Shown in pieces: positions 5,080-58,209 of a DNA stretch of 64,000 nucleotides. The translations under genes and the position numbers were made by a program. The DNA comes from Bacteroidales bacterium (GTDB taxonomy: Bacteria; Bacteroidota; Bacteroidia; Bacteroidales; UBA3824). The stretch covers positions 10,932 through 74,931 of the forward strand of contig JAEERW010000016.1 of the NCBI GenBank assembly GCA_016286055.1. The letters are read 5' to 3'. The notes beneath the pieces are model-generated. The model made no database searches, was not told the DNA's origin, and saw nothing but the letters and a program-made list of their open reading frames with translations. Each line of letters starts with the position of its first letter. Position 1 is the first letter of the stretch.

Positions 5080-5087
5080 AATGTCAA

Positions 5088-6161: not shown

Positions 6162-6600
6162 AATGTACGTAGTTTTTGGCAAAGGTATATTATTTTTTGG
6201 GAAAGGAGTTTTTTTTAAGTTCAAAAACATTTCACGTTTTTGGTGGGATGGTCCCGACGCTGTGAAAGATTTTTATAGGGAAGAATTGAAACGCAAAAAA
6301 AACTAATTGAATATTACTTTTTCCAAAAGATTATTATCCTCTTTTATGATATTCTTTACATAAAAACGGCCGTTTTCTTCGGCAAAAGCCTTTATAGCCT
6401 TAATTCCAGCAATCACTTTGTCGATTTTTGATTTAGGTTTCAAGCTTGCGGAGTTGCTGTTTGTTAATAGTAAACATAGTGGTTTGTATTTTTGCAAAAG
6501 TAATTTTTTTAAGGGGGAAAGTGTATTTTTTGGGGAAAGACAAAAAATCATTACTTTTGCAGCCAATATTTGTAGTATTACCTTAATATATATATAAAGA

Positions 6601-13650: not shown

Positions 13651-13655
13651 ATTAT

Positions 13656-14852: not shown

Positions 14853-14864
14853 AACCCAATAATT

Positions 14865-42400: not shown

Positions 42401-45400
42401 ATGAAACAATTTAAACTATACAACAAGATTGCAGGCTGGGCGACGTTCACAATTGCGGCTCTCACATACCTGCTCACTATTGAACCCACGGCCAGTTTTT
42501 GGGATTGTGGAGAATTTATAGCCACGGCTGTAAAATTAGAAGTGGGACACCCACCAGGAGCACCTCTCTGGATGATTATAGGACGTGTGGCAGCGTTGTT
42601 CGCATGTGGCGACGTCACAAAAATGGCAATGATGGTAAACGCCGCAGCGGCTTTGGCAAGCGCGTTCACCGTGCTGTTTCTCTTCTGGAGTATAACACAC
42701 ATAGCCCGCAAACTCATCAACAATATATATTATAAAGGTGTAAAAGATGAAAAAAGCATCAGCTACACTATGCACGAAAACGTTATCATGCTTGCAAGCG
42801 GCGTGGTGGGTTCGCTCATCTATTGCTTCTGCGACACGGCATGGTTCTCAGCGGTAGAGGGCGAAGTATACAGTATGTCGAGTTTATTTACTGCTGTGGT
42901 ATTCTGGTGCATTCTCAAATGGGAGGAGTGTGCCGACGAAAAATACGCCAACCGCTGGATAATATTAATTTGCTACCTGATGGGATTGTCAATAGGCGTG
43001 CACCTGCTCAACCTTTTGGTAATACCCGCTATTGTATTTGTATATTACTACAAAAAATACAAAACCACACAACGTGGAACTATCACTGCGTTAGGCATTT
43101 CGCTCATATTATTAGTAGCGATACTTTATGGTATCATTCCACAGTCGGTTAAGATTTCAGCATATTTCGACCTCCTGTTTGTCAACGTCTTTGGAATGAG
43201 CTATCTCTCTGGAACATTGTTTTTTGTGATAGTGCTTGCAGCAGGACTTTCGTTCCTTATATGGTGGAGCCACAAAAAGAAAAAAGTGCTTCTCAACACC
43301 ATAGCACTTGGCGCGGCAGTAATGTTTATAGGCTACGGCACATTTGCCATGACTGTAATACGAGCATGCGCTAATCCTCCGATGAATGAGAACAGTCCCG
43401 ACAACGGATTCAGCCTTCTCTCCTACCTCAACCGTGAGCAATATGGCGACTGTCCGCTAATCTACGGCAATTACTACAACGCCGACGTAACAGACCAGAT
43501 ACAGCTTTACACCTACATAGCCCAAGACGGCAAGTATGTACAAGCCGCCAAAACCAATCCCGAATATGTATATGACGCTGAGCATTGTGGATTCTTTCCA
43601 CGTATGTACAGTCAAAACCCAAGCCATATCTCAGGCTACAAAAGCTGGGCAAACATCGACTCGTCGAATCCTACGCAGCGGCCATCATTCGCCGACAACT
43701 TAGCATTCTTCTTTAAATATCAGCTGGGGCATATGTATTTCCGCTATTTTATGTGGAACTTTTCAGGTCGTCAAAACGACATACAAAGCCACGGTAGCTA
43801 TATTAATGGCAACTGGATAACCGGATTCGATTTTTTAGACAGCCTAAGGCTTGGCGACCAAAGCGACCTTCCCGATCGACTAAAAAACAATCCAGCTCGA
43901 AACGCTTACTACCTATTGCCATTGATTTTAGGATTTTTGGGCTTGTTTGCTGGATTTAACCACGACCAGAAAAACTGCTTTGTAATATTTCTGTTTTTTA
44001 TCTTAACAGGTGTAGCCATAGTAGTTTATCTCAACCAAACGCCGTATCAGCCCCGTGAACGTGACTACGCTTACGCAGGATCATTCTACGCATTTTCCAT
44101 CTGGTGCGGATTAGGTGTGGCAGGTATTTATGCATTTTTCCGACGCAAATTGAGCAAAATTAATATGATGCCAGCAACTGCGATAATCGCAGGCGCCTGC
44201 TTGATAGTGCCGATAGAAATGGCATGTCAAAACTGGGACGACCACGACCGTTCTAACCGTTACACATGCCGCGATTTTGCTCGCAACTATCTAGAATCGT
44301 GCGCACCTAACGCCATACTATTCACCTTTGGCGACAACGACACATTCCCGTTGTGGTACGCTCAAGAAGTAGAAGGAATACGAACCGACGTGCGCGTGGT
44401 AAACCTTTCGCTTGCCGGCACCGACTGGTATTTAAAGCAGACTATGGAGAAAAAATACGATTCCGACCCCGTTGACTTCATAATCAAAGCCGATCAATAC
44501 GCAGTAAACAAACGCAATGTGGCACTTGTGTACACCGACAATCCAACAGTGTATCTCAACGACAAGATATCAAGCAATCCTAAAGAGGTGCAAGAGATTG
44601 TAAGCCCATTCTTCAACGAGTTTGTTAAAACAGTATCAAACAGCAAGTTTCCGCAACTTTACGCCAAAGATTACGAAACCATAACACAATCGCAAGATGC
44701 AATATCACCACTGCAATTGATAGCTTTGGTGCAAACACTCGCAAAAAATCCGACAACCGTGTTTGGCACCAACACCGAAGGTATCAACAACCTCAATGCT
44801 AAAGTTCCCACTCTGCTAAAAAAATTGTGTGACCTGCCCGCACCAATACAAAGCGTGGTATCGCTACTAGCATCTGACAATGAGAAAGATAAGATACCAT
44901 TACAATCGGGTGAAACTATCAACTATATAGGTTCGCGCAATATTTCTATTCCTGTAAATAAGGAAAACTGCATTGCCAACGGCACACTCAGCGCCAACAA
45001 TGCCGACCGTGCTGAAGACAAAATAGTAATCAACATCTCAAAAACTTATTTCCTTAAAAACGACATAGCTGTATTCGACATCATTGCAGCAAACGACTGG
45101 AAACGCCCCATCTATTTTGCAGCAAGCGGTAGCATCGACGATTATTACGGTTTAGACAAATATTTCAGACTTGAAGGATTTGCTTACCGAGTAGTGCCAT
45201 ACACCATCCACAAGGAAGACGAAACTGAGGTGGGAGAAGTTGACGGCGACATAATGTACAACAACGTGATGAACAAATTCCGCTGGGGCAATATGGGCAG
45301 CGACAAGGTAACTATAGAAGAAAACAATCGCCGCCAAATCAACATCATAGGTATAAGAGAAATGTGTGCTCGCCTTGCAACACAGCTTGTAAAAGAAGGC

Positions 45401-45739
45401 AAAAAAGAGAAAGCACAAGAGGTGATAAACAAATGCTTAGAGATAACACCATCGCATCAGGTATATTACGACCAGTCGATGCTTCCTTTGGTAAACGCTA
45501 TGTACAATGCCGGAATGGAACAACAAGCCGCCGAAATATCACAAAAGATTGGCGACGAATACAACAGCATACTCCAGCACTATATCACACTAAAAAACGA
45601 TGGTATAATCGAAACCCGCGAGGCTAACATTGGAGTAGCCATTATAGCTCAGCTGGCTCAATACGCTATTATAAACAACCAAGAGACAGCTGCAAATAAA
45701 CTCAGAGCATTGTACGACAAATACAGCTCTATGTTTTAA
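42401..45739 (+). CDS. DUF2723 / TMEM260-like polytopic membrane glycosyltransferase
   Basis: SFWDCGEFI, HPPGAP, AVEGEVY, PRERDY, GDNDTFPLWY motifs. Confidence 0.88.
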   Translation: MKQFKLYNKIAGWATFTIAALTYLLTIEPTASFWDCGEFIATAVKLEVGHPPGAPLWMIIGRVAALFACGDVTKMAMMVNAAAALASAFTVLFLFWSITHIARKLINNIYYKGVKDEKSISYTMHENVIMLASGVVGSLIYCFCDTAWFSAVEGEVYSMSSLFTAVVFWCILKWEECADEKYANRWIILICYLMGLSIGVHLLNLLVIPAIVFVYYYKKYKTTQRGTITALGISLILLVAILYGIIPQSVKISAYFDLLFVNVFGMSYLSGTLFFVIVLAAGLSFLIWWSHKKKKVLLNTIALGAAVMFIGYGTFAMTVIRACANPPMNENSPDNGFSLLSYLNREQYGDCPLIYGNYYNADVTDQIQLYTYIAQDGKYVQAAKTNPEYVYDAEHCGFFPRMYSQNPSHISGYKSWANIDSSNPTQRPSFADNLAFFFKYQLGHMYFRYFMWNFSGRQNDIQSHGSYINGNWITGFDFLDSLRLGDQSDLPDRLKNNPARNAYYLLPLILGFLGLFAGFNHDQKNCFVIFLFFILTGVAIVVYLNQTPYQPRERDYAYAGSFYAFSIWCGLGVAGIYAFFRRKLSKINMMPATAIIAGACLIVPIEMACQNWDDHDRSNRYTCRDFARNYLESCAPNAILFTFGDNDTFPLWYAQEVEGIRTDVRVVNLSLAGTDWYLKQTMEKKYDSDPVDFIIKADQYAVNKRNVALVYTDNPTVYLNDKISSNPKEVQEIVSPFFNEFVKTVSNSKFPQLYAKDYETITQSQDAISPLQLIALVQTLAKNPTTVFGTNTEGINNLNAKVPTLLKKLCDLPAPIQSVVSLLASDNEKDKIPLQSGETINYIGSRNISIPVNKENCIANGTLSANNADRAEDKIVINISKTYFLKNDIAVFDIIAANDWKRPIYFAASGSIDDYYGLDKYFRLEGFAYRVVPYTIHKEDETEVGEVDGDIMYNNVMNKFRWGNMGSDKVTIEENNRRQINIIGIREMCARLATQLVKEGKKEKAQEVINKCLEITPSHQVYYDQSMLPLVNAMYNAGMEQQAAEISQKIGDEYNSILQHYITLKNDGIIETREANIGVAIIAQLAQYAIINNQETAANKLRALYDKYSSMF

Positions 45740-45794
45740 AACAGATTCCAATTCTTTTAGTTTTCATAATTTTTAATGTTTTTTTTACCCCAAA

Positions 45795-45828
45795 AAGGGA
45801 CTGATGCGAATCGGTCCCTTATTTTTTT
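45795..45828 (+). terminator. intrinsic terminator
   Basis: AAGGGACTGA/TCGGTCCCTT stem plus T tract. Confidence 0.7.
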
Positions 45829-45882
45829 ATTTCCACAAAAAACACTTTATTTGCAAAGCAAAAAACATATAAAGTTACATCT

Positions 45883-46863
45883 ATGGAAAACAACAATACC
45901 GAAATCACACATAATCCTCAGCCCCTATTTTCAAGGGCGTTTGCATACGATGGCAGAATCCGACGCTTAGAATATTGCCTGTCGTTTGTAATAGGTGTAA
46001 TTATAGTAATGGCCACAGTATATCTGCCTGAATATATCTACACCATGGAATTAAAGAGCAGTGTAAATGCAAATAAGCCATTATTTCTATTAGAAAGGTC
46101 AACTACAATGATGTTTGTAAATCTTCTATGCGAATGGATATATTGCATCACTTGTTGGTTTATGTTGGCACAGAGCACAAAACGATGCCACGATATAGGA
46201 GAAACTGGATGGATGCAGTTCATCCCTATTTATAACCTAAAACTATTCTTTGTAAAAAGCAACAGCGACGTTAATCGCTACGGCTACCCTCCAAAAAAAA
46301 GAATAAGTGTTGACAGTAATTTGATCCATAAGAATATCATTAAAGAAAATAATACTTTGGTTACCGTTTATCTTTTGGTGATGATTTTCTTACATAGCGA
46401 CTTATTAACCCAAATAGCACAATTTATAAGAACCTCAGATATCTTCCACTATATTTCATTTATGGATTTGTTAATACTATTAATATATAATAGTATTAAA
46501 TTTATTTCCCTAATTGGATTTGTTTTGGTGTTTCACTACAAGAAAATTGGATTTTACATCGCCACTATGGCAAGCTCCATTTTACTTTTGATCAGTGTTT
46601 ATTATACATCGGATAGTTCATCCGAAGAATCGATAGGATTATATCAAATATTTTTATGGACTTTCCGCATTATAGGTTCATTCGGCTTCTTAGCACTCTT
46701 TCCAATACTCAACATTAGGAAAAACGGAGAATCTGTTTGGGAAAAAATGGAGCCAAGTTTAAATAATACCGATTGGAAATCATTCCTCCTATATTTATTC
46801 ACATTTCAAATAGCGATGCTGTTCGAATATTTAGCTCATATACTCTTTCGTATCCTAAATTAA
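45883..46863 (+). CDS. DUF805-domain membrane protein with extra C-terminal TM region
   Basis: GRIRRLEY, KRCHDIG..GW, N.YG.PP motifs; more AT-rich than neighbours. Confidence 0.8.
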   Translation: MENNNTEITHNPQPLFSRAFAYDGRIRRLEYCLSFVIGVIIVMATVYLPEYIYTMELKSSVNANKPLFLLERSTTMMFVNLLCEWIYCITCWFMLAQSTKRCHDIGETGWMQFIPIYNLKLFFVKSNSDVNRYGYPPKKRISVDSNLIHKNIIKENNTLVTVYLLVMIFLHSDLLTQIAQFIRTSDIFHYISFMDLLILLIYNSIKFISLIGFVLVFHYKKIGFYIATMASSILLLISVYYTSDSSSEESIGLYQIFLWTFRIIGSFGFLALFPILNIRKNGESVWEKMEPSLNNTDWKSFLLYLFTFQIAMLFEYLAHILFRILN

Positions 46864-46997
46864 TAAATCAAACCTTGATTCTAAGACAAAAAAAACAATG
46901 TAAATTATTGTTAATTATTGCAATTATAGTGTAGGTTTTTCAAAAATGTAATGTATCTTTGCATCCTGAAATCGGGCAGGAAAAAACAAACAAAAAA

Positions 46998-49460
46998 ATG
47001 AAAAACCTTAACAAGATTAACCTATTGACCGCCCTTCTGCTTATTGCATCGAGTCTTTCGGCTCAGACCAAAGTCAGGGGGATAGTTACCGATGCGTCCA
47101 CAGGTGAACCATTGCCGTTTGCCAACGTGGTTTTGGTGGGTACCACAGTAGGAACTATCACCGACCCCGAAGGCAACTACAATCTGCAAACAAACCAAAA
47201 ATGCGATTCCATTTCGTTCTCGATGCTCGGCTACCAAACCTACACATTGCCAATATCATCAGGTTCATATCAAGAAATCAACGTACAGCTGATTCAAGGC
47301 GACCTTATGCTCAACGAAATAGTGATACACCCAGGCGAAAATCCTGCTTGGCGTATTATGCGCAACGTGGAGGCCAACCGCAAAAAAAACAATCCCGACA
47401 AGCTACAAAGCTACAAGTTTCAGTGTTACAACAAGATGGAAATCGACCTCAACAACGTCAAAGACGGCCTAACTAAAAAGGGCGTTATGAAAAACTTTGA
47501 CTTTGTGATGAACTACGCCGACACATCAGCCGAAACTGGAAAAGTTTTTCTTCCTGTGTTTATAACAGAAACACTTTCAGATGTTTACTGCAAATCATCT
47601 CCACTAAAAAAGAAAGAGGTGATAACCGCAAGCAGAGTATCTGGCGTTGAAAGTAGCAACGTGTCACAGTTTACCGGACAAATGTTTATCGATGTTAATA
47701 TCTACAAAAACTACATCCCCGCATTTGGACACGAATTTGTATCACCTGTATCAGACTATTGGAAAGCCAATTACAAATATTATCTATTGGATTCGCTCTA
47801 CGAAGACGGGCACTACCTTTATCATTTGGCCTTTAAACCAAAACGCAAACAGGAATTTACATTCAACGGCGAACTCTGGATCAACGACTCTACCTGGGCT
47901 GTAAAAAAAGTTAAGGCAAAATTAAGCAACGGTGTAAACATCAACTTTGTAAACGACCTTAATATTACACAAGAATACGCCTTTGTAGATTCAGTATGGT
48001 TTTTACAAAAAGAAGAGCTATTTGTAGACTTCAACCTCGCCGACAGCACAATGGGATTTTTTGGACGCCGCACCGTATCGCGCAAGAATATCGAAATAAA
48101 TCCAGAATTTGAACCCGGCACATTTTCGGCATCTGCCAACGACGAAACCATAGTTCTCGACGATGCGCTCAATCACGACACCGCTTTTTGGAACACCGAA
48201 CGACACGAAAAACTCACCCAAAAAGAACAAGACATATACATAATGGTAGATTCCATCAAGGAAGTACCTATTTTTCATACCATTACAAACACAATCAATA
48301 TGTTTGTAACAGGATATTGGACACACTCTTGGTGGGAAATGGGTCCATATTTCAAATTCTATAGCCACAATCCTATAGAGGGTCACAGATTTCGTTTTGG
48401 AGGTCGCACCAGCAACCAATTCAGCACCGACATTATGTTTAATGCCCATATTGCATACGGCACAAGAGACCAGAAATTTAAATATGGCGGCGGATTCATG
48501 TATATGGTAAACAAAAATCCGCGTAGGGTAATTGAAATGCAGTATAAATACGACTACGAGCAACTTGGACAGTCGATCAATGCTTTTTCGGAAGACAATA
48601 TCCTTTCAAACCTTTTGGCACGTCGCGAAAACGACCATCTGTTGCTTGTTCAGGAACTTTATTACAACTACGAACACGAATATTTTCAAGGCTTTTCAAA
48701 CACTGTGGGCGGAAAATACCGCAAGTTATACCCATCGGAGGTGATACCGTTTAGAAACGAAGTGTTGCAAACCGATATGAAAAACATAACAAGTTTTGAA
48801 ATAAGCCTCAACACCCATTTCTGTTACAACGAAAAATTTGTGGCAGGAGAGTTTCTGCGCCGAAGCATGTCGAGCGATTATCCAGCACTCGATATCACCG
48901 CTACCATAGGTTTTTGGAACAACAAAGGCAGCTACGACCATTATTTCAGAATTACCTCGTCTATACAACAACAGGTGTCAATAAGTCCAATAGGAAAGCT
49001 CAAATATCTTATTGAGGCTGGCAAAATAATTGGCACAGTGCCATTTCCGCTGCTAAAACTACACGAAGGCAACGAAACATACGCATTCGACACATACGCC
49101 TTCAATATGATGAACCTCTACGAGTTTGCCTCCGACACATACCTAAGCGCAACGCTCGAACACCATTTCAACGGATTTTTCCTCAACCGCATTCCCCTTA
49201 TGCGCAAACTCAAATGGCGCGAAGTAGCTTACGCCAAAGGACTTGTGGGCGACATTTCTGATAATAACAGCCGCGAAAACGCACTTCTCGACTTTCCGTC
49301 AACACTCGGCGATGTAAACAAACCATACGCGGAAGTGGGTGTGGGAATAGAAAACATATTCAAATTTTTCCGCGTAGACGCTATCTGGCGACTCACTCAC
49401 TTAGACAATCCTGACATCACCAAATTTGCCATTATGTGCAAGGTGCAATGCTATTTTTAA
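46998..49460 (+). CDS. carboxypeptidase-regulatory-like domain + DUF5686 outer-membrane protein
   Basis: G.VTD..TGEPLPFANV, YNK.E.D, PYAEVGVGIENIFK.FRVD motifs; start at ATG 46998; TATCTTTG promoter at 46954-46961. Confidence 0.85.
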   Translation: MKNLNKINLLTALLLIASSLSAQTKVRGIVTDASTGEPLPFANVVLVGTTVGTITDPEGNYNLQTNQKCDSISFSMLGYQTYTLPISSGSYQEINVQLIQGDLMLNEIVIHPGENPAWRIMRNVEANRKKNNPDKLQSYKFQCYNKMEIDLNNVKDGLTKKGVMKNFDFVMNYADTSAETGKVFLPVFITETLSDVYCKSSPLKKKEVITASRVSGVESSNVSQFTGQMFIDVNIYKNYIPAFGHEFVSPVSDYWKANYKYYLLDSLYEDGHYLYHLAFKPKRKQEFTFNGELWINDSTWAVKKVKAKLSNGVNINFVNDLNITQEYAFVDSVWFLQKEELFVDFNLADSTMGFFGRRTVSRKNIEINPEFEPGTFSASANDETIVLDDALNHDTAFWNTERHEKLTQKEQDIYIMVDSIKEVPIFHTITNTINMFVTGYWTHSWWEMGPYFKFYSHNPIEGHRFRFGGRTSNQFSTDIMFNAHIAYGTRDQKFKYGGGFMYMVNKNPRRVIEMQYKYDYEQLGQSINAFSEDNILSNLLARRENDHLLLVQELYYNYEHEYFQGFSNTVGGKYRKLYPSEVIPFRNEVLQTDMKNITSFEISLNTHFCYNEKFVAGEFLRRSMSSDYPALDITATIGFWNNKGSYDHYFRITSSIQQQVSISPIGKLKYLIEAGKIIGTVPFPLLKLHEGNETYAFDTYAFNMMNLYEFASDTYLSATLEHHFNGFFLNRIPLMRKLKWREVAYAKGLVGDISDNNSRENALLDFPSTLGDVNKPYAEVGVGIENIFKFFRVDAIWRLTHLDNPDITKFAIMCKVQCYF

Positions 49461-49536
49461 AAAAATCCCAAAAAAATACACATTATATTATTTTTTTGTT
49501 GTATCTTTAAGCGCAATTTTATAAGCGCATAATCCG

Positions 49537-52005
49537 ATGGCAACAAAAAAGATTATCAATACTGCAGATTTGCACAAATACCGACCGCTAATATGGTACG
49601 GTGAACCTGTTCACGCAAGGTTTTCACAATTGGAAACCATATTACGTAACGGGTTAGGCGAGTTTTACGCCGACTTTTTGGCAGAACCACTCATTACTTC
49701 AGGACAAGCAAGATGGATGAGCGCAGCCGTGCCAAACGGGGTACCATTTACCCAACTCGAGCCTCAGAAACAAGAAATGGCAAGAGTGTCGCTTCAAAAT
49801 ATCCTCAACAAAATCAAAAACTTTGCGCAAGAACTATTACAAGCCGACGACCCTCATCAAAAAGAGCTCGGAGAACTATTGCTACTATCCATCGAAGTTC
49901 CTTCGCTCGACACTGTAATTGTTGACAACGAACGCATAGTGCTCACTATATGGGGATTCAGCAGTGAAGAATCTCAAAAAGTCAATTTCAAACTCGATGC
50001 TAAAATTGAAAAACCGGTGAATCCTGCGGTAGCCTCAGTGCCGCTATCAACACCAGCTCCCCCTACCCCACCCGAGCCGGAAACAACCACACAGCCAGAA
50101 CAAGTGGAGCAACCCACTCCGCCACCGCCGCCCACTATGCAGACACAGAGCGCAGGTGCAACACCTCCACCCCCACCGCCCCCACCGCCAACTAACAATA
50201 GCGGCAAGAAAAAAGGTCTTCCAGGATGGCTTTGGTTCTTGTTAGGACTTCTGCTTGCTCTCCTACTAGTTTGGCTCTACTTCCATTTTTTCGGTAAGCC
50301 CGATCCTAAGGACGAGGGCAACAACAACCAAACCGAGAACAACGACCCGACGAATCCGGGCGACTACACCAACATTCTACCCGAAAACCCTAACATCATA
50401 CCGCCTATCGACACCACTCGTGTGATAGTAGACCCCGACGACCCTGGTCAGCGTCGCGTATTCTCCGACAAGGTGAACATCGCTCTCAACAAAGGTGTCA
50501 ACCCGCTGACATTTGCTCAAAAACTCCACGACCAATATGCCGAGGAACTGAAAATCGTATATTGCGACACCGTGATCAAACTGATGCAAGTGGAAACCCC
50601 CGAAGGCCAATGGAAAGAGTGGATGACAAAGCTCAAAGCTATGGACGAGGTTAAGCTGGCATTTTCTAACACAATGTTTTCGAGCGAATACAAAGCCTCA
50701 GACCCAGCATTTAGCGACGCAAAAAAATCGTGGTATTTTGAAATGGTTCAGGCTTACAAAGCTTGGGATATCACCAGAGGTGATCCAAACGTAATTGTGG
50801 CTGTTGTTGACAACGGTTTCGATCTCACCCATCCCGAAATCAAAGACAAAATTGTTTCGCCCTACGACATCACCACAGGAAGCTCCACAGTAAAACCCTG
50901 CGGAGGCGAAGGCAACGAACACGGCACGCACGTGGCAGGCACAGCAGTAGGCAGTAGCGACAACGGACAAGGATTGTGCGGCATCGCTCCCAACTGCAAA
51001 CTTATGCCTATCAAGATAGCCGACGAATACGGCAATATGCAAACAATTTCGGTGGTGGCAGGCATACTCTACGCCATTCACCACAACGCCAAAGTGGTGA
51101 ACCTTTCGCTTGGAACATATTTTGGCGAAGATATAGTATCGATGCCCACAAGCCAGCAAAACCAGTTGGCACACAACGAATATGCCGACGAAGCCGCATT
51201 TTGGAGCGACCTTTTCCAGTTTGGACTCGACGAAGACATAGTGCTTGTGATAGCGGCAGGCAACCAAAACATTATCACAGGCATCGACCCCTTTGCACGT
51301 TCGCCCAAAACCCTCACCGTTTCGGCATTTCAAAAAGGCGGCAAACCCAAAGCTGAATTTAGCAACCACGGAGAGTTTGCCACCATCTCGGCACCGGGCG
51401 TGGATATTTACAGCAGCGTTCCAGGAGCAAAGTTTGAATACTTAGACGGCACAAGTATGGCAAGCCCAATAGTGGCAGGTGCGGCAGCATTAATGCGTTC
51501 GGCACATCCGCACATCAAAGCCGAAGACATAGTGGCTATATTGAAAAAGACCGCCAAACCGCTCAACAGCACACCCAAGATAGGACCGCTGCTGCAAATT
51601 GAAGACGCACTGAAAAGTCCCGGCGGAGTACTCATCATTCCCGACAACGCCACCAATGCCGACTTTGCGCAGGGCAAGTGGAAATCTACCACCGACCTCT
51701 ACTCCACCAAAGACTCGGTAGATATTATGCTCTACTTTACCTTAGAAAACGGTGGGAAAGGCACTATCACCTATTCACAATCCGACGGCAAAGATTTCCG
51801 AGCACCGCTTACCGTAACATTTGAAAACGGCAAATTGGTGATGGTGCAAAACAGCGAAGCTACCAACGATGACTATCCTGACGACGGATACCACCCATAC
51901 AAGTTCACCTGCAGCCAAGACGGCAACAAAACCGACGGAGCCAACTGCAAAGCAGAATACGAGGGCGAACCAAACGTTGGATTCAAAATGATAAAAATAC
52001 TTTAA
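49537..52005 (+). CDS. SrfA-like membrane protein with inserted S8 (subtilisin) peptidase
   Basis: Catalytic triad VAVVDNG, HGTHVAG, GTSMASP plus AAGN; Pro-rich linker and TM; N- and C-terminal domains resemble SrfA (from recall). Confidence 0.8.
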   Translation: MATKKIINTADLHKYRPLIWYGEPVHARFSQLETILRNGLGEFYADFLAEPLITSGQARWMSAAVPNGVPFTQLEPQKQEMARVSLQNILNKIKNFAQELLQADDPHQKELGELLLLSIEVPSLDTVIVDNERIVLTIWGFSSEESQKVNFKLDAKIEKPVNPAVASVPLSTPAPPTPPEPETTTQPEQVEQPTPPPPPTMQTQSAGATPPPPPPPPPTNNSGKKKGLPGWLWFLLGLLLALLLVWLYFHFFGKPDPKDEGNNNQTENNDPTNPGDYTNILPENPNIIPPIDTTRVIVDPDDPGQRRVFSDKVNIALNKGVNPLTFAQKLHDQYAEELKIVYCDTVIKLMQVETPEGQWKEWMTKLKAMDEVKLAFSNTMFSSEYKASDPAFSDAKKSWYFEMVQAYKAWDITRGDPNVIVAVVDNGFDLTHPEIKDKIVSPYDITTGSSTVKPCGGEGNEHGTHVAGTAVGSSDNGQGLCGIAPNCKLMPIKIADEYGNMQTISVVAGILYAIHHNAKVVNLSLGTYFGEDIVSMPTSQQNQLAHNEYADEAAFWSDLFQFGLDEDIVLVIAAGNQNIITGIDPFARSPKTLTVSAFQKGGKPKAEFSNHGEFATISAPGVDIYSSVPGAKFEYLDGTSMASPIVAGAAALMRSAHPHIKAEDIVAILKKTAKPLNSTPKIGPLLQIEDALKSPGGVLIIPDNATNADFAQGKWKSTTDLYSTKDSVDIMLYFTLENGGKGTITYSQSDGKDFRAPLTVTFENGKLVMVQNSEATNDDYPDDGYHPYKFTCSQDGNKTDGANCKAEYEGEPNVGFKMIKIL

Positions 52006-52038
52006 AACACAAACATACAAGAAAAACTGATAAACGCA

Positions 52039-54570
52039 ATGAGCCAACCCATAATAACAACCGACATATCGTCGGTACGACCGGTATTTACCGCAGGCAC
52101 AAGCGAAAATATAAAGCGCTACAACCAATTGAAAAAACTTTTCGAGGACGGCAAAGAGTACACCGTACTTGCTAAACCTATTCCTGCTGGAAAAGATAAG
52201 ATTACTTGGCACACCGAGTTTGACGGCAATCCCGAACCATTCTCAAAACTTACTGAGGAGGAACAGAAAGTTGCCAAAGGGAGAATTAAATACCAGGTAA
52301 ACCGCATGTACAAAGCAGCGTACTACATTCTACGTAAAGAAAGCAAACAAGAAATTGACGAATTATTTGAGATTCTTGACTCCTGCATCGAAATCCCCGA
52401 CTACGACAACATCTTTAGAATCACAAATTCTAACGGAAAAGTAAACTACGTGCTCATCAGATGGGGATTCATCGGCGATGAGTTTAATTCTGGATCGGGC
52501 ATCATCAAACGTCTTGTCCCTCTCAAAGTAGACACTATCAAGGTTAAAGTGCTATACAACGGCTCTCCGGCAGTAGGCATAAAAGTAATAGTAAACCACA
52601 GAGGAAAAATCTACCAGCTTGAAACCGATAGTCTGGGCTATGCTTGCGTAGAGGATATTCCTTTAGGCGACAAGTTCACTGCCGAAACTGACGAAGAAAA
52701 CTCGTTGGTAGAATTCACATGCGACGGTAGCGACGAATATCACGTGCTCATTGGCACTAAATCGGCAGATATGGTTTTCAAAATTGTTGACAAAAACAAC
52801 AAGCCGATTCCCGGAGCAAGTGTTTCGTTTACTTTCGAAGGTAAAACATTCAACGAAATCGCCGACCAAAACGGGAAAATCACACTGCACGACATCCCCG
52901 AAAACACGGAAATCTTAGCCCGTCAAGATAATATATCGCAATCATTCGTGTGCGACCCGCAACGCGACGAGTACATATTCAACGGTTCAAGTCCGTCGGC
53001 CGAAATCGAAGCTCTTATAATAACCGAAAACGGCGAACCTGTTGACAACGTAGATATTCTTGTGGAATACAACGACAGTCGTCACTCCCTCTGCTCCGAC
53101 AAAAACGGCAAGATACAGCTCGATAATCTTCCAGTAAATTGCGATATCTCAATCACTTGCAACGACCACGATTTCAACCGTGCATCTATATCCTTTACCA
53201 CGCAAGAAGGCCTTAATATGGCAGAACTCAAGGTAAAGAAAAAAACTACCGAGGGCAAAATGACAATCAAGGTTATCGACGACCACGGCGGTATCATTTC
53301 AAACTCATTGATACGTTGCGAATTCGATGATTTCAAAACCGAAATTGTTACAGACGAAAATGGAGAAATTGTTATTGAAAAAGTGCCGTTCGACACCGAG
53401 GTTACTTGCACACAGATGATCGACGGTCTTGGTAGCCGCCGCCATAAGTTCCTATTTACCAAAGACAACGACCTTTACATTCTTAAAGGTTTGAAAATTC
53501 TCGGCAAGGCAGCCATCTCCGACCTCGAAATCCATATTCAGAACAAAAAGAAACAGGATATTCCCAACCTCCGCGTTACCATCAGCGACGGACACAAAGA
53601 TATCAACCGCATCACCAACGAGAACGGACGTGTGTATGTTAACGAACTGCCCCGCAGCAAAAAATACGTTATCACCACCGAATACAAAAACAAAACCACA
53701 CATACTGATTATGAATGCACCAAAGACAAGGAACTTGTACATTTGTTTGTTGGCCGCAGCCCGTGGTTGTTCCTCTTATGGCTGATACCGCTGCTCGCCA
53801 TTATTGGTTTTGCCATTTACAAATATGTGGTGCCTGTGCTTACCGAAAGCAATCCTGCTCCTGTGGTAGTGGCAGACAGCACCGACAACAACGCTCAGCC
53901 CGAACCTGAGCCGCAACCCGAGCCGCAGCCTGCTCCCGAGCCTCAGCCAGAACCCGAACCTGAGCCCGCTCCTGCTCCGGTAACAATTGTAAACCAAGGC
54001 ATTGTGCTCACCATTATGGACGAAGAATCAGGCAATCCCATAGCCGATGCTACCGTGCATTTGGAGTGCAAAGGTCAGGTGTTCGACGACCGCAGCGATG
54101 TAAAAGGTAAGGCAACAATCGACCAACTCAACGCCGACACCACCGACAAGGTAGATGTAAAAATCACCTCACAAGGTCACGACGAATTTATTGGCTCGTT
54201 TATGTACACGCCCAACAAAACCATTATCATCCCCAAAAAATCAATAGAATTTAGCGAGGAGATACTCCCCTGCGGCACCGAAATCCGTTCAAAAGGTTAC
54301 CACAGCACCGTTAAGACCTTCGACCTCAAAAAGAAGAAAGGCAAAGTGAAAATCTATTACCAGATGAACGACGTGCCCGACCAGATGGTAATCTACAAAG
54401 GACGCGCTTCGCAAATATCTGATTCTAAGATAATATACGACACCAAATTCGTAAAATTCTCTAAGATGATAACCATACCGTTCGACACCGAAGACGGACT
54501 CATTACCGTAAAAATCAACGGCGGCGACGACTCTAAAACACAGTGGTACGTAAAAGTAAATTGTCCGTGA
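52039..54570 (+). CDS. SrfA-like N-domain + ~5 prealbumin/Ig-like repeats + TM + PEPQ linker + C-terminal beta domain
   Basis: LAKP..ITW..F..L.EE.Q..A..CIEIP..WGF shared with neighbours; repeats V.D....PI....V...TD.NG. Confidence 0.75.
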   Translation: MSQPIITTDISSVRPVFTAGTSENIKRYNQLKKLFEDGKEYTVLAKPIPAGKDKITWHTEFDGNPEPFSKLTEEEQKVAKGRIKYQVNRMYKAAYYILRKESKQEIDELFEILDSCIEIPDYDNIFRITNSNGKVNYVLIRWGFIGDEFNSGSGIIKRLVPLKVDTIKVKVLYNGSPAVGIKVIVNHRGKIYQLETDSLGYACVEDIPLGDKFTAETDEENSLVEFTCDGSDEYHVLIGTKSADMVFKIVDKNNKPIPGASVSFTFEGKTFNEIADQNGKITLHDIPENTEILARQDNISQSFVCDPQRDEYIFNGSSPSAEIEALIITENGEPVDNVDILVEYNDSRHSLCSDKNGKIQLDNLPVNCDISITCNDHDFNRASISFTTQEGLNMAELKVKKKTTEGKMTIKVIDDHGGIISNSLIRCEFDDFKTEIVTDENGEIVIEKVPFDTEVTCTQMIDGLGSRRHKFLFTKDNDLYILKGLKILGKAAISDLEIHIQNKKKQDIPNLRVTISDGHKDINRITNENGRVYVNELPRSKKYVITTEYKNKTTHTDYECTKDKELVHLFVGRSPWLFLLWLIPLLAIIGFAIYKYVVPVLTESNPAPVVVADSTDNNAQPEPEPQPEPQPAPEPQPEPEPEPAPAPVTIVNQGIVLTIMDEESGNPIADATVHLECKGQVFDDRSDVKGKATIDQLNADTTDKVDVKITSQGHDEFIGSFMYTPNKTIIIPKKSIEFSEEILPCGTEIRSKGYHSTVKTFDLKKKKGKVKIYYQMNDVPDQMVIYKGRASQISDSKIIYDTKFVKFSKMITIPFDTEDGLITVKINGGDDSKTQWYVKVNCP
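53896..53978 (+). repeat. coding (Q/E)P-EP low-complexity repeat
   Basis: QPEPEPQPEPQPAPEPQPEPEPEPAPAP linker after the TM. Confidence 0.8.
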
Positions 54571-54612
54571 TAACTATCTGAAAACATATTAACAACATAA
54601 AAACCTGAATAT

Positions 54613-55779
54613 ATGAACATTATAGCCACAAAAGACCTCAACAACATACGCTATATGCTCGGTGCTGCCGAAACAGCCAAAGGTGTTTACAACCAAATAA
54701 AGGCGACGTTTCCCAACAGCGACGAGTATAAGATATTTGCCGAGCCAATCATATTGGAAAACGGCGCAAAGATAGCGTGGGCGTCGAACTACGACGGCAA
54801 GGGCGTGTGCTACGACCATCTCTCAGAAGAAGACCAGAGCATTGCCCGCGACATACTTTCGGCAAGCATCAAAAAACTCTTAGACAAGGTAAAAGAGTTT
54901 AACGATCAGTCTATCACCGATATGATGTACAAATGCATCGAAATTCCCGGCATGAACGACGTATATATGATACGCAAAAACGGCGAAACCAAAGTAGTGA
55001 TTGCCGAATGGGGATTTGTGCTTGATACTCCCGGCGCAGAGAAAGGTTTGCTTTACAAAATTTTGAATACACGTAAAATTCCCATGAAGTTTACAGTTGT
55101 TTACAGCGACGACCTTTCAATTGCTCCGTTTGAGGATATAATTTTTGAGTACGAAGGCAAGCCATTATCTTCTAAATCAGACGAAAACGGTATCATCGTT
55201 CTTGAAAAAATCAAAGAAGATTCTTACATCAAAGCGTTTGAACCCGATGGCGACCAAAAAATCAACATGCAGGGCTTCACTTGCTACGAAGAGGGCGCGT
55301 ACACCATCAAAGTAACTCCCAAAGGCGATATGCTCTTTGAGGTAACCGACCAAAACAAGAATCCTCTCAGCGGCAAAGAATTTATATTTGAATATAACAA
55401 TGAGAAGATAAAAGCCATCTCTGATGCCGACGGTCACATGACCTTAAAGAAGGTTAAAAACGGTGTTACAGTTCAAGCCTACCAAGAAGGTGAATCAGGC
55501 AGAGAGAATCAAAACACCTTTGTTTCTGACCGCAAAATAGAGAAGTATCCTATTGTAATAGAGATAAAAGAGGAGTTACCTCCTCCCCCTCCGCCGCCAC
55601 CGCCGGCTCGCAAAATGCGCTTTAAAGTTATCGACGAGAAAAACAACGTGGTAAAGAGTGCCGAAGTGATAGTAAAATATAACGGCATAACCAAAACCCT
55701 CTTTACCGATGCCGATGGCTACTGCGAACTTGAAGATGTTCCGATTGGCGCAGTTGTTGAGGCAAAGGCTAAAAAATAA
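54613..55779 (+). CDS. SrfA-like N-domain + Ig-like repeats, last repeat truncated, no TM
   Basis: FAEP..IAW..CIEIP..WGF; repeats; poly-Pro; ends EDVPIGAVVEAKAKK*. Confidence 0.75.
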   Translation: MNIIATKDLNNIRYMLGAAETAKGVYNQIKATFPNSDEYKIFAEPIILENGAKIAWASNYDGKGVCYDHLSEEDQSIARDILSASIKKLLDKVKEFNDQSITDMMYKCIEIPGMNDVYMIRKNGETKVVIAEWGFVLDTPGAEKGLLYKILNTRKIPMKFTVVYSDDLSIAPFEDIIFEYEGKPLSSKSDENGIIVLEKIKEDSYIKAFEPDGDQKINMQGFTCYEEGAYTIKVTPKGDMLFEVTDQNKNPLSGKEFIFEYNNEKIKAISDADGHMTLKKVKNGVTVQAYQEGESGRENQNTFVSDRKIEKYPIVIEIKEELPPPPPPPPPARKMRFKVIDEKNNVVKSAEVIVKYNGITKTLFTDADGYCELEDVPIGAVVEAKAKK

Positions 55780-55785
55780 TACACT

Positions 55786-55849
55786 TAGAGACGTGCCAAG
55801 GTGCGTCTCTATTTTCAATATTATGAGACGCACCATGGCACGTCTCTAC
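55786..55849. repeat. REP doublet (REPIN-like inverted pair of palindromes)
   Basis: TAGAGACGTGCCAAGGTGCGTCTCTA (55786-55811) and inverted copy GAGACGCACCATGGCACGTCTCTAC (55825-55849), whose reverse complement begins GTAG. Confidence 0.8.
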
Positions 55850-55881
55850 ATTTAAAACAACCTTATTTGAATTAAATAATT

Positions 55882-57603
55882 ATGGAAGGCTCAGGAAAAT
55901 ACACATACAACGAATCCGATTCGGAATATATCGTAAAAATCAAAGGCCGCAAACCATGGTGGCTTTTGTTGTTGTTGCTTTTGTTGCCGTTGCTTTTATT
56001 GCTGCCATTTGAAAAAGATGTAGTGTTTAAAACTGTAAACAAATCGTCCGGTGATGCTATACCCCAAATCAATGTTAAGTTTCAATATGTAAAACATACT
56101 TTTATTTCTTTCTCACCATTTGGATTTTGTGTAAAGGATACTATAAAATATGAGAATCAGAGCGACGAGAAGGGTGAAGCATTGTTTACAAAAGTAAAAT
56201 ATACTTTATTTCAGTCGTTATTTTACGGAGGCGAAAACACTGAGGCATCGGCATTTGGAGGTTGCTTAACCGGCGACACTATTACACCTCCTTTTGGTTC
56301 GCTCGGAGGACTTCTTGCCGATAAAATTGAATTAGGGTTTAAAGGTTACGACCTTGATTTTAAGGTAATTGATGCCGACGACAACGAGCCCATTCCCGAC
56401 GCAACAGTAAAGGCAGTAATATCAGGTCCTGAAAACCGAAACGACAACCAAAATTCCGACCCGGGTGGATACGCAATGTTTGAAAGCACTCCCCTATGCT
56501 CCGACATCACTGTTGTGGCACAAAAAGAGGGCTACGAACCCGACACAATCACCGGCGGTGTGGAGTCGCTTTTAAAAGGCGAATTTGGACGCACTCTGCG
56601 TTTAAAACCCGGCAAGGGGGCAGTTACATTCACAGTAAAAGATTTAGTTAGCCGTCAAACAATTCCGGGTGCAAAGGCAACGCTGATTACCACTAACGGC
56701 TCAATAAGTCTCACCACCAATACAAACGGCGTGGGCAAGGGCTTTTTCGACAGCATCAACGTTAACAAAACAATCAAAATTCAGGTAGAGAAAATCTATT
56801 ACTACGACACCACTTCCGCCGAATACACAGTGATGAAATACGAAAAACTTTCGGACGACGAGCGCACACTCTATATGCGTCCCAAGACCGAAAATCTTGT
56901 TTTCCGCGATGTGGATGCAGTATCTAACAAACCGATAGCAGGCGTGCAAAACGTGATTTTTATCAACGGTAAAAAAAATGCCACAGAGTATTCCAACAAT
57001 CAAGGCTGCTTTAACGTGGCGGGCTTAAAACCCGAAGACAAAATCAGCGTGGTGGCTACCAAAGGCGGATACATCAAAAACGAGGATAAGATTAAAAACG
57101 CCCGTACATCTACCCTCGACAACCAAGAAAAACGTGATATTCCGCTATTTGCAATTCAAGAAATGCACTCAAAACCACGCAAAAACTGCGGTGTGCACTT
57201 CTCAGGCACTCTCCTATCCGACACCGAAATCAAGGGTCATATCTCAAAAATCTACCAGCCCGACAAATACGGCGAATATGTTGGCGACGGAATGTACCCG
57301 AGTAATCAAGCCGCTTTCCCAAATGCAGTTCAGTATACATTTGATGCAATAGCAGTTGACAAAGGTACACATCTCACGATATATAGTCAACCAAACTTTA
57401 AAGGAAAGATTCTGTTAGACGTTACAGGTCCGGCTTTAATCAACAACGTTAAGTGGAAAGACGAATCGCGAATCAAAGACGTTAACGAAAAAACTTTCTC
57501 TGCTGAGTTTGAGGCAAACTTCCCGAAGAGTTGCCGCCGATGGAGCACCGAGAATATGAATCAATGGGACTACGGTTCGGTTAAAATCACCTGCGGAGAA
57601 TAA
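55882..57603 (+). CDS. membrane-anchored protein with prealbumin/Ig-like repeats and crystallin-like C-terminal domain
   Basis: TM PWWLLLLLLLLPLLLLLP; repeats V.D....PIP.A.V; FDAIAVDKGTHLTIYSQPNFKG resembles a beta/gamma-crystallin motif. Confidence 0.7.
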   Translation: MEGSGKYTYNESDSEYIVKIKGRKPWWLLLLLLLLPLLLLLPFEKDVVFKTVNKSSGDAIPQINVKFQYVKHTFISFSPFGFCVKDTIKYENQSDEKGEALFTKVKYTLFQSLFYGGENTEASAFGGCLTGDTITPPFGSLGGLLADKIELGFKGYDLDFKVIDADDNEPIPDATVKAVISGPENRNDNQNSDPGGYAMFESTPLCSDITVVAQKEGYEPDTITGGVESLLKGEFGRTLRLKPGKGAVTFTVKDLVSRQTIPGAKATLITTNGSISLTTNTNGVGKGFFDSINVNKTIKIQVEKIYYYDTTSAEYTVMKYEKLSDDERTLYMRPKTENLVFRDVDAVSNKPIAGVQNVIFINGKKNATEYSNNQGCFNVAGLKPEDKISVVATKGGYIKNEDKIKNARTSTLDNQEKRDIPLFAIQEMHSKPRKNCGVHFSGTLLSDTEIKGHISKIYQPDKYGEYVGDGMYPSNQAAFPNAVQYTFDAIAVDKGTHLTIYSQPNFKGKILLDVTGPALINNVKWKDESRIKDVNEKTFSAEFEANFPKSCRRWSTENMNQWDYGSVKITCGE

Positions 57604-57606
57604 ACG

Positions 57607-58209
57607 CTAATAAAAAAGCATTAGCATATTACCACACAAAAATCCCGTTACATAGCCAATTAAAAGGCGTGTAAACGGGATTTTTTCTATATGCATACGA
57701 GCAAAGGCGCAAATAGAAAACACCAAGACTGTTACCACAAACGTCCAAAAAACATCTGCGCCGCTGATTTTGCCAATCAAAACCACAAACGACGATAATC
57801 CGCCGCAAAACAGTCCGTATGGATGAAGATGAAATTTATTGAAATCTAAAAGAGATATCGCCGATAATATAGCAAACAACTGAAAAATAGAGAGAACTCC
57901 GTGCGATGAGAAATTTTCGTTTCGCATAACATAAAAGCCGAGCACGTAAGAACCAATCATTGCTGTCGTAATCAAAATTTTAGAGCGCAAAGAAGATTCG
58001 CCGCTAAAAACATCTTTGATTTTGGCGATATACATCACATAAGACGGAATCAGCACTACCAAAAGCAGCACAAAAAAATAGTAATAGACCGACGACCAGA
58101 CCGAATAGTAATAAGCCTGCCGCTCTGTGCCGTAAAACACCGTAAAAGCGTAAAAAGGCATTAAAAACGGGTAGGTTAATACCGACAGTATCTTGGCAGC
58201 ACACTCCAT
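57607..58209 (-). CDS. hypothetical polytopic membrane protein
   Basis: About 6 hydrophobic segments; start overlaps the rpoN stop. Confidence 0.75.
   Translation of the reverse strand: MECAAKILSVLTYPFLMPFYAFTVFYGTERQAYYYSVWSSVYYYFFVLLLVVLIPSYVMYIAKIKDVFSGESSLRSKILITTAMIGSYVLGFYVMRNENFSSHGVLSIFQLFAILSAISLLDFNKFHLHPYGLFCGGLSSFVVLIGKISGADVFWTFVVTVLVFSICAFARMHIEKIPFTRLLIGYVTGFLCGNMLMLFY

Follow-up and report, generated by a model that had tools for sequence, protein, structure and literature searches.

A SrfA-type membrane protein with a built-in subtilase precursor and its probable place in a SrfB/SrfC system of Bacteroidales

Introduction

To our knowledge, the widespread SrfABC systems, which databases label as virulence factors or toxins, have no known biochemical activity. 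Here we describe a gene of a rumen Bacteroidales bacterium (lineage UBA3824, assembly GCA_016286055.1) whose 822-aa product joins the parts of a SrfA protein with an intact protease of the subtilisin family (S8). The gene occupies positions 49537-52005 of a 64,000-nt stretch of contig JAEERW010000016.1 (positions 10,932 to 74,931, forward strand); this entire stretch is referred to below as the window, and all coordinates are those of the window unless a locus is named.

The closest described relatives are the SrfA proteins of Salmonella enterica, Xenorhabdus stockiae and Haemophilus parainfluenzae, represented by the NCBIfam family NF040486 (SrfA_fam). According to the accessible part of a preprint (10.64898/2026.09.18.752743), SrfA consists of a head, a disordered region, a transmembrane (TM) helix, a variable segment and a lipocalin- or avidin-like C-terminal domain (SrfA-C), which is characterized by a F-L-N-G-x-W-like motif and by four cysteines in 89.5% of its sequences, while SrfB and then SrfC bind in an AlphaFold3 model. 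Co-immunoprecipitation of the Xenorhabdus SrfA, SrfB and SrfC is reported in the abstract of PMC6950479. The 822-aa protein shares with canonical SrfA the head, the disordered linker, the single TM helix and a small barrel with F-x-x-G-x-W, all in the same order, as well as the presence of srfB and srfC in the genome and, among its relatives, in the same operon. Judged by sequence, it is homologous to SrfA and would be expected to work in a SrfA-like manner. It differs by approximately 440 residues of prodomain and S8 domain between the TM helix and the barrel, by a score under the NF040486 cut-off, by the retention of two of the four tail cysteines, by the gene order of its relatives (srfB-(x)-srfC-srfA vs. 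the canonical srfA-srfB-srfC, as taken from the name and the papers), by two further head-bearing paralogues that adjoin it and by the unlinked position of srfBC in this genome.

Among proteases, the mycosins (MycP, TIGR03921) of the ESX type VII secretion systems (T7SS) are likewise S8 enzymes on one TM helix, in their case a C-terminal anchor, and are likewise encoded with, and presumably act in, a multi-protein envelope machine driven by cytoplasmic NTPases. The mycosin family is the best NCBIfam match of the S8 part of the 822-aa protein (E 4.3e-43), and its fold matches include MycP3 (4kg7_A, Z 33.4) and MycP5 in the ESX-5 complex (7np7, Z 28.2). However, mycosin membership was rejected on score (147.8 bits vs. 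an equivalog cut-off of 278.75), the locus has no T7SS context, the anchor lies ahead of the prodomain, and thermitase and the subtilisins are closer to the catalytic domain (Z 40.2). These secreted proteases with an I9-type propeptide share with the 822-aa protein the catalytic domain, the Asp-His-Ser triad, the oxyanion Asn and a segment of ~100 aa upstream, whereas here a signal-anchor helix and a 226-aa, presumably cytoplasmic extension stand in place of a cleavable signal peptide, the propeptide lacks Pfam recognition and a SrfA-C appendage follows.

Architecture of the 822-aa protein

From the N- to the C-terminus, the protein comprises a SrfA head, a disordered linker, one TM helix, a prodomain-like segment, an intact S8 domain and a SrfA C-terminal beta-barrel, hereafter the tail (Table 1). 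An earlier reading of the DNA and its open reading frames (ORFs), made without database searches (the sequence-only reading), had described a complete SrfA-like scaffold with an intact subtilisin inserted, and the uninterrupted ORF, the Pfam S8 match and the separate NF040486 matches bear this out. An AlphaFold2 model built on 49 full-length relatives, with a mean predicted local distance difference test (pLDDT) score of 84.3, contains a compact head (aa 1-160), disorder (aa 165-228), a helix (aa 230-252), further disorder up to aa 273, a beta-alpha-beta-beta-alpha-beta unit (aa 296-379), the protease and an all-beta end domain (aa 713-821). The TM helix, previously placed at about 50215-50292, was recovered by a hydropathy scan and agrees with the model helix. 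Because the protein has no signal peptide, carries lysine ahead of the helix and has cysteines in the tail, an N-in topology with a cytoplasmic head and a periplasmic protease is likely. At least 60 full-length homologue clusters (38-89% identity) were found, under the sole name "S8 family serine peptidase [Bacteroidales bacterium]".

The only Pfam domain of the protein, Peptidase_S8 (PF00082), covers aa 418-676 (E 2e-47; 162.4 bits vs. a cut-off of 21.8). D425, H462 and S640, in the triad order Asp-His-Ser, and the oxyanion residue N576 are each kept in 49/49 aligned full-length relatives, as expected for the intact active site that had been read from the sequence. Thermitase (1tec_E) superimposes on the S8 domain with Z 40.2 and a root-mean-square deviation of 2.0 over 277 residues at 32% identity (sequence E 8.9e-32), its residue 1 aligning to aa 385. 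The place and length of the beta-alpha-beta-beta-alpha-beta unit modeled just ahead of this point fit a propeptide; in a fold search with the whole model, the best-match list was filled by the catalytic domain, and aa 253-418 scanned alone against NCBIfam gave no match. Thus, the prodomain that had been called probable is upheld for aa 284-384 by position, modeled secondary structure and the thermitase alignment, which together point to a putative prodomain, although not by any profile. In three relatives of 1273-1303 aa (P0137, P0146 and P0047), this segment and the S8 domain (together, pro-S8) occur twice in the order head, pro-S8, TM, pro-S8, tail, so that one subtilase copy would lie on the cytoplasmic side.

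Kinship of the head and the tail with SrfA

Scanned as a whole, the protein matches NF040486 with E 4.9e-33 (115.2 bits) in two stretches (aa 6-287 on profile positions 3-279). Separate scans of the two ends, which had been suggested together with the sequence-only reading, place each of them at the proper end of SrfA_fam: aa 1-150 alone match profile positions 3-146 (E 5.4e-14), and aa 697-822 alone match positions 317-435 of 438, in the C-terminal third (E 1.6e-10). Since the head and the tail match separately without the linker, the Pro-rich linker is not the sole driver of the SrfA match. The head contains residues that are invariant across the 49 relatives, W139 and G140 among them. Its ESM Atlas matches (score 0.92) lead to clusters of ~150-165 aa that are commonest in Pseudomonadota, which we regard as a lead only, while the tail scored below 0.8 in the same atlas with nothing usable. 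Word-index searches among shorter proteins returned fragments only (two matches for tail aa 690-822 and one for head aa 1-160) and are uninformative on relatives of canonical size.

The tail had been read as starting at nt 51628, i.e., aa 698, and a profile made from the relatives places the domain at aa 698-821. Its Pfam matches are all sub-threshold (LapA, 0.011; DUF3642, 0.097), so that no known S8 accessory domain is present, and a generic accessory domain was rejected on these grounds together with the SrfA_fam match of the tail. A type IX secretion system (T9SS) C-terminal sorting domain of the Por_Secre_tail type was also sought in the tail and rejected, as E-values up to 10 gave only SrfA_fam in NCBIfam and LapA and DUF3642 in Pfam. 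After subtilases, the best fold matches of aa ~705-822 are a designed 8-stranded barrel (6czj_B, Z 9.8, 104 aligned) and shwanavidin (3szh_A, Z 8.5, 98 aligned), modest values that were obtained by searching with the entire 822-aa model and that are close to a level common by chance. As modeled, these matches would agree with the lipocalin- or avidin-like SrfA-C described in the accessible text of 10.64898/2026.09.18.752743. In detail, the SrfA-C pattern that had been recognized in the tail holds for the FAQGKW motif and for the last two of the four cysteines (C792 and C804), the first pair being F754 and N777 here; across the relatives, Cys occupies the four positions in 25, 26, 46 and 49 of 49 sequences.

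Association with srfB and srfC

The genome that contains the window (4.18 Mb, 36 contigs) encodes srfB (PF07520, E 2.2e-233) and srfC (PF10139, E 2.5e-160) on another contig (C35); a 337-aa gene lies between the two, and neither adjoins a SrfA-head gene. Head and tail profiles were made from an alignment of relatives (A1) and run over every six-frame ORF of at least 80 aa in this genome (12,668 in total). The head profile returned just the S8 gene and its two immediate downstream neighbors, and the tail profile the S8 gene only; SrfB and SrfC are single-copy.

Across 201 Bacteroidales genomes, head or tail matches (E <= 1e-14) were found in 12, and SrfB in 11 of these 12 vs. none of the remaining 189, including four whose only SrfA match (E ~1e-4) sits on a low-complexity linker. 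The 11 genomes with both a SrfA-like gene and srfB represent 11 different families (Fisher p = 3e-17, for relatives that are not independent). A phylum-level sample of 401 Bacteroidota genomes, mostly outside Bacteroidales, contributed one further genome with a match at E <= 1e-6 among those searched (G521, another order), in which an 831-aa frame that matches the SrfA profile at both ends adjoins srfB and srfC on the same strand. Within Bacteroidales, srfB, a ~330-aa gene, srfC and the S8 gene are contiguous on the same strand in G022, G015 and G100; in G008, srfB, srfC and the S8 gene share a strand without the ~330-aa gene, and the S8 protein is headless (TM-pro-S8-tail).

A metagenome scan with alignment A1, from which 80 loci were kept out of 566 relatives, provided 53 loci with a head+S8 ORF, 48 of them with assessable upstream DNA. 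srfC is the next upstream ORF in 44/48 and lies at most three ORFs upstream in 46/48; srfB was also seen in 39 loci. The two exceptions are L030, a relative 88% identical to the window and without srfC upstream, and L064, where srfC lies four ORFs upstream. The order srfB-(~330-aa gene)-srfC-[head/TM/pro-S8] is therefore the rule among relatives, and this near-general linkage makes the unlinked arrangement of the window unusual and confined to its rumen clade.

Neither SrfB nor SrfC has a TM segment or a signal peptide by hydropathy. SrfB (997 aa) contains the motifs DVGNSRT and DIGGGTTD, which we take to be those of an Hsp70/actin-fold ATPase, and SrfC contains GQSQVGKS and DFPG, presumably of a P-loop, GTPase-like protein. 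The top Foldseek matches of a SrfB model are Hsp70s (DnaK 7ko2_B, E 9.4e-13, probability 1.00, TM-score 0.33). Against PDB sequences, SrfC gave no match as a single sequence and, as a profile, only a P-loop-level match to Der (E 0.01).

Additional genes accompany these operons. Beside srfB-x-srfC of the same genome (L005, G000:C35:24000-43999) we observed, immediately ahead of srfB, a 208-aa protein that combines a Pro-rich linker with a C-terminal zinc ribbon. The other neighbors there are a protein of >2059 aa with an N-terminal TM segment and a PKD domain, an AAA-ATPase_like/PDDEXK_9 protein and, together with trigger factor, a tandem pair of ClpP paralogues. Related operons (L012 in G022:C15, L013/L014 in G015:C685, L016 in G008:C91, and L047) include, upstream of srfB, a TssR-like VWA protein together with an ABC ATPase and a 4-TM protein. 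They also encode a JAB-domain protein, DO-GTPase-like proteins and a fusion of a head with a transglutaminase-like DUF553 domain, and one weak match is ADP-ribosyltransferase-like (E 1.5e-4). Both srfB and the S8-SrfA gene occur twice in G015.

Modularity of the head, the protease and the tail

Among the best 120 full-length matches, the head is present in 118 and the tail in 76, the other 44 combining head and S8 without a SrfA tail. A second large group, including P0097 and P0106, has Listeria-Bacteroides repeats before the TM helix and a different C-terminus. The metagenome head+S8 fusions retain the SrfA tail in 14/53 cases and lack it in 39/53; as most fusions have no tail, the constant unit would be the predicted cytoplasmic head with the TM helix, on which periplasmic payloads vary.

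A separate tail profile (A2) yielded 935 representatives at E <= 0.001, the best 150 of which were classified with our own hidden Markov models and a hydropathy rule. The head-TM-pro-S8-tail form accounts for 77 of these 150, with three more carrying a second pro-S8 ahead of the TM helix, five headless TM-pro-S8-tail forms and two pro-S8-tail forms. Tandem arrays of 2-4 tails, mostly after a signal or TM segment, make up 24; the rest are head-TM-two tails (two: P0199 and P0265), head-TM-tail (two: P0272, of 361 aa with nothing inserted, and P0249, with beta-sandwich repeats between), head-tail (one), TM-tail (one), an unclassified 4289-aa protein and short pieces that are probably fragments (32). 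A 310-aa head+tail protein also occurs in L014. The sequence-only reading had proposed that SrfA is a carrier frame for inserted effectors and had suggested listing what lies between the SrfA ends. The proposal stands insofar as the N- and C-terminal parts are those of SrfA, pro-S8 is placed where canonical SrfA has a short or variable segment, and other contents exist (nothing at all, repeats or an extra tail); it does not extend to a varied effector set, none of which was seen between the TM helix and the tail among the best 150 tail representatives, the insert being nearly always pro-S8 and the tail itself absent from most head+S8 loci.

In split loci (L049, L052 and L065), srfC is followed by a 263-aa protein of head, linker and TM helix, a 158-aa TM protein and a 492-aa TM-pro-S8 protein, so that the fusion joins parts that elsewhere are separate neighboring genes. 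The fused and split forms thereby tie the enzyme to the head-TM module.

The two genes downstream of the S8 gene carry heads as well, and the three heads of the locus share 27-28% mutual identity. The product of the 52039 gene, in addition to a CarboxypepD_reg match, matches NF040486 with E 1.1e-7 and our head profile with E 4.7e-19, and is 28% identical to the first head (E 1e-11). Its end domain (aa 739-843), of ~100 aa and framed by cysteines, is predicted to be periplasmic. The product of the 54613 gene has no TM helix, signal peptide or hydrophobic segment by hydropathy scan. Head paralogues adjoin the S8 gene also in G140, G022, G015, G100, G038, G075 and G058. Beta-sandwich repeats of the CarboxypepD_reg/Big_1/SpaA-like type are thereby placed on the predicted cytoplasmic side at 54613-55779 and at 52039-53760 (~400 residues ahead of the TM helix in the 843-aa paralogue); folds of this type are usually extracytoplasmic.

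The Cys-framed domain (54256-54567, aa 740-843), which has no Pfam match, was found by its own profile in 16 related loci in three settings, namely on head paralogues, on a stand-alone TM protein of 155-168 aa between the head gene and the S8 gene (e.g., L052:7618-8094), and behind S8 in L059:1-2100. In the 158-aa protein of a split locus, it shares 26% identity with the C-terminal ~100 residues encoded by the 52039 gene (E 3e-9). As far as sequences tell, the head-TM unit, pro-S8, the tail and the Cys-framed domain are thus shuffled among neighboring genes of one system, which would support a functional link between the protease and its 52039 neighbor, but not the processing of neighboring membrane proteins that the sequence-only reading had put forward as possible.

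Table 1. Parts of the 822-aa protein and neighboring genes, with coordinates in the window
Feature	Position	Strand	Basis or remarks
Whole gene, SrfA-type membrane protein with built-in pro-subtilase	49537..52005	+	822 aa; stop-free ORF and translation
SrfA N-domain (head), aa 1-160	49537..50016	+	NF040486 profile 3-146; pLDDT >90; own head profile E 3.9e-73
Pro-rich disordered linker, aa 161-226, GKKKG at its end just ahead of the helix	50017..50214	+	pLDDT <50 over aa 165-228
Single TM helix, aa 227-253	50215..50295	+	hydropathy scan; model helix aa 230-252
Prodomain-like segment, aa 284-384	50386..50688	+	conserved block in 49 relatives; secondary structure; thermitase alignment
S8 catalytic domain, aa 385-696	50689..51624	+	Pfam; thermitase fold match; catalytic residues
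Catalytic codon D425	50809..50811	+	
Catalytic codon H462	50920..50922	+	
Oxyanion codon N576	51262..51264	+	
Catalytic codon S640	51454..51456	+	
SrfA C-domain (tail), aa 697-822, small beta-barrel, FAQGKW motif, two cysteines	51625..52002	+	NF040486 profile 317-435
Paralogue 1, 843 aa: SrfA head, beta-sandwich repeats, TM helix (aa 574-601), PE-rich linker, more repeats, end domain	52039..54570	+	
Paralogue 2, 388 aa: SrfA head and beta-sandwich repeats	54613..55779	+	NF040486 E 2e-7; own head profile E 2.8e-13
573-aa TM-anchored protein with CarboxypepD_reg repeats, without SrfA head	55882..57603	+	counterpart beside the cluster only in same-genus G140

Proposed function and alternative explanations

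We consider it probable that the 822-aa protein serves a Bacteroidales SrfB/SrfC system as its SrfA-type membrane subunit and holds a complete subtilase precursor in its periplasmic half. By analogy with canonical SrfA, the head would plausibly dock on cytoplasmic SrfB and SrfC. On the other side of the membrane, the prodomain would plausibly fold and then inhibit the protease until autocleavage near aa 384/385, after which the head-TM-prodomain part would stay in the membrane and the S8-barrel part would either be free in the periplasm or be held non-covalently on the tethered prodomain. Since the prodomain lies between the TM helix and the enzyme, ordinary autoprocessing would cut the SrfA "frame" in two. 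More speculatively, the two head paralogues would share the same SrfB/SrfC machine, and the protease would have a partner or a substrate in the periplasmic end domain of the 52039 product; the co-encoded periplasmic domains are obvious substrate candidates.

Several observations weigh against this interpretation. The whole-protein score of 115.2 bits lies below the curated NF040486 cut-off of 150, which is reached in 0/201 Bacteroidales and 0/401 phylum-level Bacteroidota genomes, the first disulfide pair of SrfA-C is absent, and neither Pfam nor NCBIfam recognizes the prodomain-like segment. The S8 locus is on a different contig from srfBC, and no SrfB or SrfC was found by family or protein queries in G140, a 98% complete genome of the same genus in which the S8 gene and both paralogues are present; either the protease may be independent of srfBC, or the region may be missing from the assembly. 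Binding of the head to SrfB and SrfC is an analogy drawn from the abstract on canonical co-immunoprecipitation and from the model in the accessible preprint text; the SrfB model is mediocre (mean pLDDT 67.2), and SrfB gave chance-level matches to PDB sequences as a single sequence and none as a profile. Finally, the RNA cover of the gene (see the last section) is a weak sign of transcription, as carried-over DNA in the library is possible.

Should SrfB and SrfC form a cytoplasmic engine, interchangeable SrfA-head adaptors spanning the membrane could let it control periplasmic enzymes from inside, an extension that we put forward only tentatively and regard as rather unlikely in this strong form. 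The protease would then remain inactive on the tethered prodomain until action of the engine on the head releases or activates it, and further clients or substrates would be found in the head paralogues and in the Cys-framed domain of the 52039 product. If true, SrfABC-type systems would represent a new class of inside-out regulated machines for envelope proteolysis or remodeling, not toxins.

An explanation with an equally low but real chance of being right treats the protein as an autonomous membrane-anchored periplasmic subtilase, serving envelope protein turnover or the release of nutrient peptides, with SrfA parts that are a leftover anchor or accessory and no working link to SrfB and SrfC in this organism. 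The unlinked srfBC of its own genome, the persistence of the locus in G140 without detectable srfB or srfC, the rumen-clade locus L030 without srfC upstream and the headless TM-pro-S8-tail forms (in G008 and in 5/150 tail-bearing representatives) all speak for such independence. Yet the head is highly conserved (pLDDT >90, invariant residues in 49 relatives) and triplicated in the locus, srfB occurs in 11/12 genomes with SrfA-like genes vs. 0/189 others, srfC is nearby in 46/48 assessable metagenome loci, and even the headless form of G008 directly follows srfC.

We regard it as quite improbable that the protein is the exported toxic or effector part of a SrfABC-type toxin, leaving the cell (e.g., in membrane vesicles) to degrade competitor or host proteins. 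Cytotoxicity of the Xenorhabdus SrfABC is reported in the abstract of PMC6950479, and vesicle export of canonical SrfA is argued in the accessible text of 10.64898/2026.09.18.752743, which at the same time questions the toxin view of SrfABC. A subtilase would be a plausible toxic activity, and the weak ADP-ribosyltransferase-like and the DO-GTPase-like genes of some related operons might be read in the same sense. On the other hand, a signal-anchor helix is the only secretion signal, the tail has no T9SS sorting domain, SrfB and SrfC are cytoplasmic and NTPase-like instead of toxin-like, and the locus is surrounded by chromosomal housekeeping genes. In PADLOC, the S8 gene gave a generic subtilase match only, with no other PADLOC or toxin family, and SrfB, SrfC, the paralogues and the small neighbors gave no match.

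The notion that the likeness to SrfA is a chance or compositional effect of the Pro-rich linker, with an ordinary S8 accessory domain as the tail, can draw on the weak NF040486 matches of the linker alone (E ~1e-4 in 4/201 genomes), on the sub-cut-off total score and on the abundance of S8 among the best 150 tail representatives (at least 89 with pro-S8 and/or head, 20 more being short S8-tail pieces), but it is extremely improbable and was refuted computationally by the separate matches of head and tail at the right profile ends, by S8-free tails in head-TM-tail proteins, by the co-occurrence with srfB and by the adjacency of srfC.

With regard to the preferred interpretation, a SrfA-type subunit with a periplasmic subtilase precursor, neither a SrfA with an S8 domain nor SrfBC of Bacteroidota is described among the papers listed by full-text literature searches. 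The supplementary homologue tables of 10.64898/2026.09.18.752743 may list such architectures; publications pairing SrfA and SrfB with subtilisin concerned only the Bacillus surfactin genes. A large family branch, common in gut and rumen Bacteroidota, would have SrfA replaced or extended by an enzyme with an assayable active site, which makes SrfABC function experimentally approachable with respect to topology, autoprocessing, dependence on SrfB and SrfC, and substrates. Hundreds of proteins that databases call just "S8 family serine peptidase" would become parts of a multi-gene system, and the SrfA head is a portable module on several different proteins of one locus.

Other features of the locus and the window

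Membership of the 55882 gene in the system is uncertain. Two strong terminator-like hairpins of 11 pairs each, followed by a T run, were found at 55786-55811 (after the 54613 gene) and at 45795-45820 (after the 42401 gene); they may mark the limits of a transcription unit at 45883-55779, leaving the 55882 gene outside.

Directly upstream of the S8 gene lies an 833-aa DUF5686/CarboxypepD_reg protein (46959-49460). Because only the same-genus G140 and L030 likewise have a DUF5686 gene ahead of the S8 gene, it is probably outside the conserved system. A DUF805 membrane protein (45883-46863) is encoded two genes upstream of the S8 gene, and in a metagenome operon of a distant relative (L084:12632-13345) a DUF805 protein is again encoded, two genes after head+S8; it may be a further component of the system. 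Farther upstream, a 1112-aa TMEM260-like O-mannosyltransferase with TPR repeats (42401-45739) was observed.

Of the four RNA runs (X1, X2, X3 and X6), the S8 gene was covered only in X1, a bovine-gut library, and its uncovered parts in X2, X3 and X6 are uninformative. In X1, 73% of the sampled words of the gene are present and contigs cover 28/30 bins of 45000-58500; one contig over 50665-51702 has six differences from the window, and another (51735-52242) runs from the S8 gene past its stop codon into the gene that follows. Contigs of X1 and X3, which come from two studies, differ from the window by a skipped or diverged stretch of 147-149 nt at 52228-52378, within the head-coding part of the 52039 gene, which is probably strain variation. 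A sigma-70 promoter scan, which does not cover Bacteroidota promoters, gave 22 sites vs. 23.6 in shuffled sequences and is uninformative.

Elsewhere in the window, an FHA protein, a PP2C phosphatase and a Ser/Thr kinase are encoded in a row at 12181-16604, and an AAA_5 (MoxR-like) ATPase lies beside a VWA-like DUF2201 protein at 3946-6230. The remaining window contains chromosomal housekeeping genes, among them those for a class II tRNA synthetase, fumarase, LepA, RpoN and alanine racemase.

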